The position numbers were made by a program, and so were the translations under genes. The notes beneath the pieces are model-generated. The model did not search any database. It was given only the letters and a program-made list of their open reading frames with translations, and was not told the DNA's origin. A stretch of 64,000 nucleotides of DNA from Candidatus Nanohalobium sp. (GTDB taxonomy: Archaea > Nanohalarchaeota > Nanosalinia > Nanosalinales > Nanosalinaceae): the NCBI GenBank assembly GCA_042217555.1, contig JBDGSL010000033.1, positions 865 to 64,864 of the forward strand, read 5' to 3'. Positions 59,064 through 61,002 of the stretch are shown one piece after another. Within the stretch, counting starts at the first letter, position 1; each line of letters opens with the position of its first letter.

Positions 59064-59381
59064 CTAATCTACGTTCAAGTCTCTGAGTCTTTTCTCTACT
59101 TCTTTCAGATCTTCTCTGCTGTAGGCGTAGTCTCTGTGCCTGACTGCGAATACTGTTAGTTCTGAGTCTACGAAGTCGAAGTAGATTCTGTGGTTGAAGT
59201 TGTTTTCCGTCAGTTTTAGCCTATGGAATTCTATGCCGAACTGCGGTTTGTGGATGTAGCTGATCTTGTCCTGATCTCTGTCTTCTCCTAATCTTTCTTC
59301 TACGTGATCAAGGAGGCCTTCTCTCGTTTCCAGTTCAAACCCTTTCAGGTCCTGTTTGGCCTCTGAGGTTATTTCGACCAT
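59064..59381 (-). CDS. RelE/ParE-like toxin
   Basis: VEITSEAKQDLK..HRLKL..HRIYF..VFAVRHRD.AY. Confidence 0.7.
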   Translation of the reverse strand: MVEITSEAKQDLKGFELETREGLLDHVEERLGEDRDQDKISYIHKPQFGIEFHRLKLTENNFNHRIYFDFVDSELTVFAVRHRDYAYSREDLKEVEKRLRDLNVD

Positions 59382-59620
59382 TATGTAATCTCCTCTCTGA
59401 CTTCTTCCAAGGACTGAGTCTCTACATCTCCCTGCTTGAGTTTGATAGCCCGGAGCAGCAGTTCAGGATCTATCTCATTGTCCTCTTCTATCTTCTCTCT
59501 CAGAGCCTGTCGGATGTACTCTGAAGGACTCTTGAAATTCTTTCTCTCAGCAGTCTCCTTTATCTCATCTTTCAGTCCTTCCGGAACATCCACACTTATT
59601 CTTGCCATCTCAAATCCCAC
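59381..59620 (-). CDS. ribbon-helix-helix (CopG-like) antitoxin
   Basis: RISVDVPEGLKDEIK..FKSPSEYIRQALRE; 1-nt overlap with the toxin gene. Confidence 0.8.
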   Translation of the reverse strand: MGFEMARISVDVPEGLKDEIKETAERKNFKSPSEYIRQALREKIEEDNEIDPELLLRAIKLKQGDVETQSLEEVREEIT

Positions 59621-59689: not shown

Positions 59690-60424
59690 AGATTTCCTTC
59701 ATCGCTGATTTTCCACTCGAGTTCCTGGCCTCCAGGAAGATCCACAGAGTTCAGATGTGAACTACCTCAACCTAACTCGCTCAAGCTGACGCTTTCGCTT
59801 CGTGAGGAAGGGGCTTGTCAGTGAACTCTTCTCCTAACCCATGACTGGGTAGGCGGTGTGGTCGCCGTTCAGATTCACCGTTCCTGACTTCAGAGCCAGT
59901 TGACCGTGGCTCTTCCACATCTTCCACAGCTCTACCTATTATGCTGTAGGCGGCGTTGTAGCTCATCTGATTTTCGTAACTAGATCTGAAGATGTATGCG
60001 TCAGGATCAGTCCTTTTCCAAAACACTGTAGTCGAGAAAAAGTCTGTAAGGCGTTCTCCATCTATATATTCCCGCTTGCTTTCCAGGAAGTCGCCGCACA
60101 TTTTCTTCAAGGCCTTCTTGTACTCCATTTTAGTACGGTCACTTAGTTCTCTATCCCTGATTCTGTCCTTGTTTATACCAGCTACTAGATCGGTCATGTT
60201 GTCCTTGAGGTCTCATCTATTTTCCAGGAGATATGTTCGGTGAACCTCTTCCAGGCATAGAGATATCTTGATATCCTGTCTATGGAAAGTCCCTGAACAT
60301 CCAGAAATCTCTTGAACTACGTTATAATCTCTTTATTATGGTCTTGGATTCTGCTGGACTCTTCTATAGCTTTTAGAGTGTTCTCGATCTTGTCTTTTCG
60401 GCTGTGGATGTCGCCTTGACTCAT
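59690..60424 (-). pseudogene. decayed tyrosine integrase
   Basis: ATG 60424, TAG at codon 36, frameshift, deletions; SDRTKMEYKKALKK and DPDAYIF match SAKTKMEYKSAIKR and NPDAYLF of the 22239-23585 integrase. Confidence 0.8.
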
Positions 60425-60482
60425 GTTTCTCAGTTCTCCACCCACTTTTAGTTGTGACCGAATTATCTTTCAGAAATGATTA

Positions 60483-60800
60483 CGCCGGCGCCCGGATTAC
60501 TGAACGAACTGCCAGACGAAGCAGTTCACAGTTCTAAAAAAGAAACCTGAAAGCCATGACTTTTGCATGGCTTCTTGCGTGTGTTGAAGACCGGATGGTC
60601 TTCTGCTCAAGAAGATCAGTTGCCTGATCTTCGGGAACTCAGCGTCGAAGACTTCGTCGGAAGTCTTCTCGAAGCAGATCCGGAGATCTGCGGTAACGAG
60701 TTCGCCGGCGCCCGGATTTGAACCCGAAGCTCGCCGCACCGGGAGGTTCTCACATCAAATCCAAGCTTAGGCGTGAAACGCCGGCGCCCGGATTTGAACC
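60483..60800. repeat. three copies of the tRNA-Ser 3' end bracketing a six-hairpin cassette
   Basis: CGCCGGCGCCCGGATTTGAACC at 60779-60800 and 60703-60724; 16 bp of it at 60483-60498. Confidence 0.88.
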
Positions 60801-61002
60801 GGGGAGGGACGGGTATGTCCCAGCAGATACTTCGGAAACTTCTGAAAGTTTCATCATCATAAACCGCACTCCGCCTTGCTCCGGCGGCTTCCGGTTTACT
60901 CTGCGCATCTGCCGAAAGCCATGCATCGCATGGTTTGACATGATCGAACTTTGTGAAGTTCGCTCGAATCTGCCGCGTTCAGCCAGACTCTGCCACGCCG
61001 GC
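60779..61002 (-). tRNA. tRNA-Ser(CGA) with 134-nt intron (60829-60962) at 37/38
   Basis: GCCGGCG/CGCCGGC acceptor, GCAGA-TTCGAG|A-TCTGC, long variable arm GGGAC/GTCCC; TTCG/CGAA BHB helix; mature 90 nt. Confidence 0.92.

Follow-up and report, generated by a model that had tools for sequence, protein, structure and literature searches.

A 64,000-nucleotide stretch of DNA from Candidatus Nanohalobium sp. (contig JBDGSL010000033.1, positions 865 to 64,864 of the forward strand; hereafter the window) carries a hairpin-rich tract at 60483-60778, between the 3' end of a serine tRNA gene and a dead tyrosine-integrase gene. The tract contains repeated copies of the tRNA tail and resolves into two short, gene-less units that recur behind other tRNA genes, which we call type-1 and type-2 cassettes. 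The genome that contains the window (G000) spans 1.31 Mb in 88 contigs with 46% G+C, and the window lies on its contig C27. Judged by a flanking protein, the genome falls within the Nanohaloarchaea, near Ca. Nanohalobium and strain SG9. In what follows G numbers denote genomes, C numbers contigs and L numbers individual compared loci, and the tract is described in the sense of the tRNA, which is the minus strand. Feature coordinates are collected in Table 1.

Table 1. Features of the tRNA-Ser(CGA) locus in the window, ordered in the sense of the tRNA.
Feature	Position	Strand	Description or basis
tRNA-Ser(CGA)	60779-61002	-	5' exon 60963-61002, 3' exon 60779-60828; ARAGORN with introns and orthologue comparison
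tRNA-Ser(CGA) intron	60829-60962	-	134 nt, position 37/38; boundaries from intron-less orthologues
Type-1 cassette ('trailer')	60703-60778	-	repeats, family comparison, covariation, model R1
Type-1 5' arm	60755-60774	-	imperfect inverted copy of the tRNA tail
Type-1 hairpin	60726-60749	-	GAACCTC...GAGCTTC
Type-1 direct copy	60703-60724	-	22-nt copy of the tRNA 3' end
Type-2 cassette	60483-60702	-	body 60499-60702 (204-bp filler) plus att1 copy
Hairpin 1 stem	60698-60703 / 60635-60640	-	GAACTC/GAGTTC; DNA fold shows the enclosing stem
hp6	60674-60691	.	GCAGATC-cgga-GATCTGC, 7 bp; with hp5 a palindrome doublet in the hairpin 1 loop
hp5	60647-60668	.	GAAGACTTC-gtcg-GAAGTCTTC, 9 bp; GAA..TTC family
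hp4	60611-60632	.	GAAGATCAG-ttgc-CTGATCTTC, 9 bp; GAA..TTC family; doublet with hp3
hp3	60586-60603	.	GAAGACC-ggat-GGTCTTC, 7 bp; GAA..TTC family
ACGCAA	60575-60580	-	
hp2 (hairpin A of the type-2 module)	60551-60573	-	AAGCCATG...CATGGCTT, 8 bp; ACGCAAG precedes in sense
T6 run	60536-60541	-	
hp1 (hairpin B of the type-2 cassette)	60506-60527	-	7 bp; abuts pseudo-T-loop and att1; sole hairpin kept in G006
Pseudo-T-loop	60499-60505	-	GTTCAGT
att1	60483-60498	-	16-nt copy of the tRNA 3' end, AATCCGGGCGCCGGCG in sense; exact repeat; 57 nt from the integrase ATG
Integrase leader	60426-60482	-	57 nt; block AATTCGGTCACAACTAAAAGTGGGTGGAGAACTG conserved before the integrase genes of G001, G011, G021 and G009
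Dead tyrosine-integrase gene	59781-60425	-	82-87% identity to the G002 integrase over surviving pieces

The tRNA gene is easily overlooked. ARAGORN with default settings calls no tRNA in the window, and Rfam at gathering thresholds misses this one; the intron option of ARAGORN detects the gene but wrongly calls it Arg. The gene has a long variable arm, G73 and the anticodon loop TTCGAGA, and its intron-less orthologues read GCAGATTCGAGATCTGC. Judged by these features it is therefore tRNA-Ser(CGA) with a 134-nt intron, and the intron itself contains two hairpins (60835-60852 and 60945-60962).

The 16-mer CGCCGGCGCCCGGATT from the tRNA 3' end occurs at exactly three sites in the window, starting at 60483, 60703 and 60779, where 0.01 would be expected. 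The sequence-only reading that drew attention to the tract had described att-like copies 204 bp apart, as we find here, and had put a 54-bp spacer between the next copy and the tRNA, which we find at 60725-60778. The copies at 60703 and 60779 are identical over 22 nt. In the outermost copy, att1, the T-loop is disrupted (GTTCAGTAATCC). Among 39 tRNAs of G000, exact copies of the tail lie downstream of five and upstream of none; three more have downstream copies that are split, diverged or 10 nt long.

The six perfect hairpins of 7-9 bp described by that reading are all present at the coordinates it gave, four of them beginning with GAA and ending with TTC. Together they take up 61% of the 204-bp filler. 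In 2000 dinucleotide-shuffled versions of that sequence the mean was 0.14 hairpins and the maximum 3, and the rate in a census of G000 (perfect stems of at least 7 bp) predicts 0.11 per 204 nt (P ~3e-9). Compared with shuffles, the tract has folding z-scores of -7.1 as RNA on the minus strand and -7.3 as DNA on the plus strand, and with N runs set aside it ties for the densest hairpin cluster of the genome. The three open reading frames (ORFs) that cross it have no Pfam match, in agreement with the earlier view that no coding remnant is evident. Rfam assigned the tract to no family and returned only noise at E <= 5. No bulge-helix-bulge intron could be drawn in the tract, which lies outside the mature tRNA and whose junctions are direct repeats rather than complementary sequences. 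A box C/D or K-turn RNA was likewise rejected, as neither RUGAUGA nor CUGA boxes occur in sense within 60483-60778 and Rfam gave no match.

Comparison with other tRNA loci indicates that the tract is two stacked cassettes of different families and not a single 204-bp unit. The cassette next to the tRNA, type-1, consists of a TTTC linker, an arm, a hairpin and a direct copy of the tail. In G000 the same layout also follows tRNA-Ser(GGA), tRNA-Ser(GCT) and tRNA-Ile, and in relatives and metagenomes it follows Ser, Leu, Tyr, Arg and Met tRNAs. The direct copy always matches the tail of the adjoining tRNA. In a set of 18 examples the two-helix fold pairs 86.7% of cells in register, against 82.8% when shuffled and at most 55% when slid, and seven pairs have changed on both sides, against 3.1 in shuffled data (0 of 500 shuffles). 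The P1 helix, interrupted by an internal loop, stays in register and covaries in part.

A covariance model built from this set (R1) matches 51 of the 70 genomes of the class that were searched, with 1-14 copies in each, and overlapping tandem matches occur in G030, G040 and G044. Behind different Ser isoacceptors the type-1 copies are identical within a genome (G007, G017, G005) and differ between genomes, a sign of recent copying or homogenisation. A specific type-1 motif had no match in IMG/VR. In JGI metagenome contigs it had seven, all of them ordinary chromosomal tRNA trailers and none a free form.

Type-2 cassettes in their canonical form measure 83-90 nt and lie behind tRNA-Arg(TCG) of G000 and tRNA-Ser(CGA) of relatives (L033, L043, L056). 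They comprise a hairpin with the invariant loop GTTACGCT, the motif ACGCAA, a variable hairpin A, (C)TGATGA, hairpin B and a degenerate T-loop, and end in an exact copy of the last 15-17 nt of the tRNA. The body in the window runs through hairpin 1, hp4 with hp3, ACGCAA, hairpin A, the T6 run, hairpin B and the pseudo-T-loop; the hairpin 1 loop, GTTAC..CGCT, is interrupted in the tract by hp6 and hp5. Type-2 cassettes contain no clear inverted copy of the target. Pairing in hairpin 1 covers 93% of cells against 63% when shuffled, all six of its pairs have changed on both sides, and a U.G pair on the sense strand is kept in 7 of 13 copies.

The 5' module of type-2 occurs 17 times in G000, nearly always linked to a tRNA and in tRNA sense, and in 17 modules a variable hairpin of the hp2 type follows ACGCAA. 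These modules begin 5-8 nt past a tRNA 3' end or exactly at the 5' end of an intron (for example, at window position 25789 [C27:26653], C83:16332, C76:1529 and C31:541). A loose motif scan of IMG/VR (GGTTACGCTC..ACGCAA) yielded 120 chance matches, none of them in a tRNA context.

One such module (TAAGGTTACGCTCTTATATCGCAA) begins the array behind tRNA-Gly(GCC) at 25785-26104 (C27:26649-26968). The units of that array are delimited by GGAYGCCGCA copies, and a near-identical unit is found after tRNA-Glu(TTC) on C37.

The introns in which some modules start are frequent here. About 34 of 40 tRNA genes in G000 bear introns, of 33-268 nt (for example, 23697-24070 and 25653-25784 in the window), and default tRNA finders miss most of these genes. 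For cultured nanohaloarchaea, 4-15 intron-bearing tRNAs per genome are reported (PMC10266531). Inspecting the introns of orthologous tRNA-Ser(CGA) genes by eye (L039, L047, L048, L051, L056), we saw in several a CUGA-hairpin-GAUGA arrangement, like a K-turn or boxes C'/D', and ahead of it a segment complementary to the anticodon stem's 3' strand. A similar arrangement is known for tRNA-Trp, whose intron encodes methylation guides.

The remaining hairpins of the tract have their counterparts across the whole genome. GAA..TTC hairpins account for 150 of the 735 perfect hairpins of G000 and are its commonest small palindrome. The 16% of the genome outside long ORFs (at least 120 aa) holds 68% of them. 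A further concentration lies at tRNA genes, with 41 within 500 bp of one (3.5% of G000) and 14 inside one (0.5%). A single doublet pattern (hairpin, T...A spacer, hairpin, G) describes 31-34 of 84 adjacent hairpin pairs, where ~1.4 would be expected, and both hp6 with hp5 and hp4 with hp3 conform to it. The latter doublet recurs at G000:C48:16154-16233 with 90% identity over 81 nt; a solitary type-2 module at G000:C48:16151 contains it, whereas canonical modules do not. By these comparisons four of the six hairpins, hp3 to hp6, were added secondarily from a palindrome family spread through the genome and stand outside the basic plan of the cassette.

Stems of this family are almost always perfect, with G.U pairs nearly absent, and look like young DNA palindromes. 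Those of the tract are also perfect Watson-Crick helices with almost no G.U and look more like DNA palindromes than RNA. To look for selection at the RNA level we compared G.U with A.C among tRNA-linked hairpins and counted two GT and one AC, too few imperfect stems to discriminate. The sole Y1 (IS200/IS605-type, Y1_Tnp) transposase gene of G000 lies at C11:15334-15684, in the region C11:15190-16400, with a doublet of the same pattern ~100-145 nt upstream and a reading frame after it that looks tnpB-like by eye. We take this proximity as a lead, not proof, for how the palindromes spread.

Occupancy of the site differs sharply between genomes. The orthologous tRNA-Ser(CGA) is bare in the same-genus genomes G001 and G003, and also in SG9 and at least seven others; further genomes carry one to three cassettes, of type-1, type-2, a third type or combinations of these. 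The proposal of the sequence-only reading that the tract is a gene-less integrated cassette gains from this presence/absence polymorphism, and from the related cassettes behind other tRNAs of G000 and in most of the nanohaloarchaeal genomes searched. The exact locus had no match in JGI metagenomes.

A close counterpart comes from another genus. In G006 (L002/L009, G006:C4:3383-3753) the tRNA, type-1 cassette and att1 are 97% identical to window positions 60483-61002, and the intron is 100% identical to the 134-nt intron here. The match breaks off precisely at the tRNA 5' end on one side and where att1 ends on the other, while the flanking genes are 48-83% identical in protein (48% for the neighbouring HAD gene). 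A block this similar, with sharp ends and despite diverged flanks, was therefore probably exchanged between lineages recently, and the comparison points to lateral replacement of the whole tRNA-plus-cassette block between genera. Within it the G006 filler measures 56 nt, against 204 nt here, and retains hp1 alone; the hairpin-rich part is thus, in these two sequences, the variable portion of the block.

Beyond att1 lies the integrase remnant. An in-frame TAG (60317-60319) and a frameshift interrupt it, and it has lost ~90 aa internally, the first catalytic region among them. Its ORF has no Pfam match, and intact homologues contain C-terminal pieces of the R..HxxR..Y type. The distance from att1 to the integrase ATG, 57 nt, equals that from tRNA to integrase at the intact tRNA-Thr junction of G021 and is close to the ~58 nt at tRNA-Asn in G011, although the gap in G009 is ~130 nt. 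In the same-genus genome G002 the integrase stands directly after an intron-less tRNA-Ser(CGA), with part of the stretch masked. Because the spacing matches that of relatives, att1 is best read as the former attL of a now-dead integrase element, so far as sequence can tell. Both cassettes are best read as later insertions between the tRNA body and att1, each restoring the tRNA end. The earlier contrast with an ordinary prophage scar consequently holds only in part: the cassettes are gene-less, but they are not independent of a scar, as att1 would be the old attL beside a dead integrase.

Tyrosine recombinases are numerous in G000: the domain is matched 10 times above the cut-off of Pfam and 12 times at E <= 0.001, with several matches beside tRNA genes. 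Open-frame paralogues of the integrase lie directly beside tRNA-Leu(CAG) and tRNA-Gly(CCC) (window 22833-23534, C27:23697-24398; and G000:C12:115622-116329). The integrase pseudogene of G001 (L008, C22) has an in-frame TAG at what appears by eye to be the same N-terminal position as the one in the window, where G002 has GAG; this could be coincidence or a common hot spot. The same G001 pseudogene is preceded by four degenerate tRNA-Asn tails. These are spaced by ~75-nt units, each a long GTGAA...TTTCAC hairpin, in a cassette array of another sequence family. Beside the remnant in the window, at 59064-59620, are a ParE-like toxin ORF (a weak Pfam match, below the cut-off) and a small ORF upstream of it, perhaps all that survives of the integrated element between the remnant and the housekeeping IleRS gene.

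The anatomy of the tract, the two recurrent cassette families, their variable occupancy, the integrase spacing and the genome-wide palindrome family are observations. The reading toward which we lean, by a modest degree, is that gene-less cassettes inserted one after another, site-specifically, at a tRNA tail beside a dead integrase, and that palindromes accreted afterwards. An element with a tyrosine integrase would have integrated at the tRNA tail, leaving the copy at 60483 as its attL, and its integrase would later have decayed. A small non-coding type-2 cassette, built as a hairpin with a GUUACGCU loop, ACGCAA, hairpin A, hairpin B and pseudo-T-loop, would then have inserted at the tRNA tail, restoring the tRNA end and displacing the older copy downstream. 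A type-1 cassette, with inverted and direct tail copies around a conserved hairpin, would have followed in the same way. Two GAA..TTC doublets, resembling selfish palindromes of the REP or PATE kind in their behaviour, would have enlarged the type-2 cassette from ~85 to 204 nt.

As to the machinery, we infer that the many tyrosine recombinases encoded next to tRNA genes in these genomes moved the cassettes in trans. The cassettes would probably have travelled as single strands, folded so that their inverted and direct copies of the target could mimic the double-stranded tRNA-gene site much as attC and CTXphi attP(+) do for their own targets. A Y1 transposase of the IS200/IS605 type may have spread the palindrome doublets.

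Several points weigh against this sequence of events. We found no excised, free or circular cassette, with no match in IMG/VR and only chromosomal matches in the JGI metagenomes. A double-stranded circle of 75-100 bp is physically implausible, and a single-strand or other route therefore has to be assumed. Crossover in the T-loop would hand a new tRNA host the wrong tail, which leaves the tailoring of the cassettes to different tRNAs unexplained. The distal att copy of intact tRNA-adjacent integrases was not detected in the complete genomes G021 and G009, and the mobility of those integrases is therefore itself unproven. Finally, the occurrence of type-2 modules in introns, their sense orientation and the U.G pair in 7 of 13 hairpin 1 copies hint that the sense strand has a function, whether in the form of RNA or of single-stranded DNA.

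That last point leads to an alternative we consider unlikely, in which the cassettes belong functionally to the tRNA transcription unit, as structured 3' trailers or intron modules transcribed together with the tRNA and active as RNA. Type-1, whose 5' arm can pair either with the tail of the tRNA itself or with the copy downstream, might help direct folding or 3' processing, and released modules might be small RNAs made by the tRNA-processing enzymes. The modules are indeed almost always in tRNA sense and start a few nucleotides from the tRNA 3' end or 5' splice site; hairpin 1 combines an invariant loop and strong covariation with an invariant ACGCAA and a recurrent sense-strand U.G; and the type-1 hairpin persists in different families of the class, its stem showing compensatory changes. 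Read in sense, the tract has no T6 run before the one that follows hairpins 6 to 2, and transcript read-through is therefore plausible. Yet occupancy is erratic. The tRNA-Ser(CGA) of same-genus relatives and of many other genomes is bare; the cassettes are therefore dispensable. Both strands of the tract form perfect Watson-Crick stems with hardly any G.U, and Rfam yields no matching family. Pairing, moreover, does not need a tail copy exactly identical to its own tRNA, and insertion better explains the tandem arrays and the position next to an integrase.

It is also conceivable, and we would put it as quite improbable, that no autonomous cassette family exists. The tails would then be attL and attR leftovers of full-size elements that were mostly deleted, and the fillers meaningless sequence later colonised by selfish palindromes. 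The dead integrase and the ParE-like ORF directly beside the tract would suit such debris, integrase pseudogenes are common in relatives, and palindromes clearly accumulate in non-coding DNA. Random deletion, however, would not repeatedly yield the same 52-60-nt type-1 and 83-90-nt type-2 units behind different tRNAs in dozens of genomes. Nor would debris have stems that covary in both types, and the 5' end of type-2 is unlike the integrase element's own arm. A further idea takes the distal tail copy as the real 3' exon, so that the sequence between copies would be an intron, or a nascent one, cut by the splicing endonuclease. Genuine introns do share type-2 modules, and in some relatives and behind tRNA-Ser(GGA) of G000 hairpin inserts split the tail after AAATC(C) without duplication, as an intron would. 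We nevertheless regard this as highly improbable at the present locus, where a complete tRNA 3' end precedes the tract and the last copy has a disrupted T-loop.

Serial cassette insertion remains our preferred account. Carried to its full extent, it would mean that nanohaloarchaea host a distinct class of protein-less mobile cassettes of 50-100 nt. These would be site-specific for the tRNA T-loop and 3' end, inserted as folded, target-mimicking single strands by tRNA-adjacent tyrosine recombinases acting in trans, and the raw material of unusually long tRNA introns. We offer this broader claim as speculation and think it doubtful as a whole. A full-text literature search returned nothing that describes gene-less hairpin cassettes with duplicated tRNA tails, and a family of mini-insertions at tRNA gene ends is apparently both widespread and undescribed. 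If the cassettes truly move, they would be the smallest site-specific insertion elements known, and the tRNA tails of ultra-small archaea would be landing pads for non-coding DNA besides viruses and islands. The modules common to cassettes and intron starts offer a concrete, testable route for the gain of archaeal tRNA introns. For annotation, the lesson is that default tRNA finders overlook such genes and that duplicated tails can be mistaken for prophage borders.

The nearest known parallel is integration of phages and islands at tRNA genes. Tyrosine integrases act at the T-loop or 3' end of tRNA genes, as mycobacteriophage Ms6 does in the tRNA-Ala T-loop (PMC1762012) and phage mv4 at tRNA-Ser (bioRxiv 10.1101/2023.11.06.565760). 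In archaea, pNOB8-type elements integrate at tRNA genes, and a Caldiarchaeum tRNA gene is disrupted by a recombinase-bearing element (PMC3293823). The tract resembles such sites, where an insertion next to the tRNA 3' end rebuilds the tRNA and leaves part of its tail repeated downstream. Beside the tRNA-proximal copy stands a tyrosine-integrase gene (here dead), and copies pile up when the site is used again. In contrast to those elements, the inserts are gene-less, 54 and 204 nt long, and belong to conserved hairpin families. Type-1 includes an inverted copy of the target, cassettes lie behind many tRNAs with no integrase nearby, and no attP or free form is known for them.

Folded single strands serve as recombination sites in integron attC and in CTXphi attP(+); attC has the core GTTRRRY, is recombined by the integrase IntI and belongs to cassettes that normally carry a promoter-less ORF. 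Like these sites, the type-1 cassette is a short element with an imperfect inverted repeat, which may fold into a duplex that mimics a double-stranded target. As in integrons, stacked cassettes lie beside a tyrosine recombinase gene, with the newest insert adjoining the fixed site. The tract cassettes differ in having no ORFs and, in place of GTTRRRY, a core taken from a tRNA T-loop (GTTCAAA; GGTTCAAATCC), in which C occupies the first R position. The integrase here is co-oriented and is not classed as IntI- or Xer-like, and a single-strand route for the cassettes would be an argument by analogy.

The GAA..TTC hairpins recall a different set of repeats. REP and REPIN sequences with their RAYT genes, and the IS200/IS605-derived palindromes of haloarchaea (PATEs), are short, repeated intergenic palindromes that are often paired. 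The hairpins of G000 are likewise short, perfect, strongly intergenic, often arranged as doublets of one pattern and present in hundreds, and the genome has one Y1 transposase gene with a doublet upstream. They differ in that no RAYT-type gene flanked by repeats and no target motif is established here, and in their 8- to 20-fold enrichment at tRNA genes and introns.

Archaeal tRNA introns have themselves been proposed to arise by integration of mobile elements or by intron transposition (PMC3293823; reviewed in PMC4090602 and PMC4033280). The same modules occur in tRNA introns and in the cassettes at tRNA ends, close relatives differ sharply in intron content, and tRNA fragments lie beside a recombinase gene. 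The tract differs in lying outside the mature tRNA and having no bulge-helix-bulge, and its link to introns is one of module sequence homology rather than demonstrated conversion. Overall, we see in the tract a variation on tRNA-targeted integration, of interest mainly because it is small, spread widely through the class and linked to tRNA intron content.

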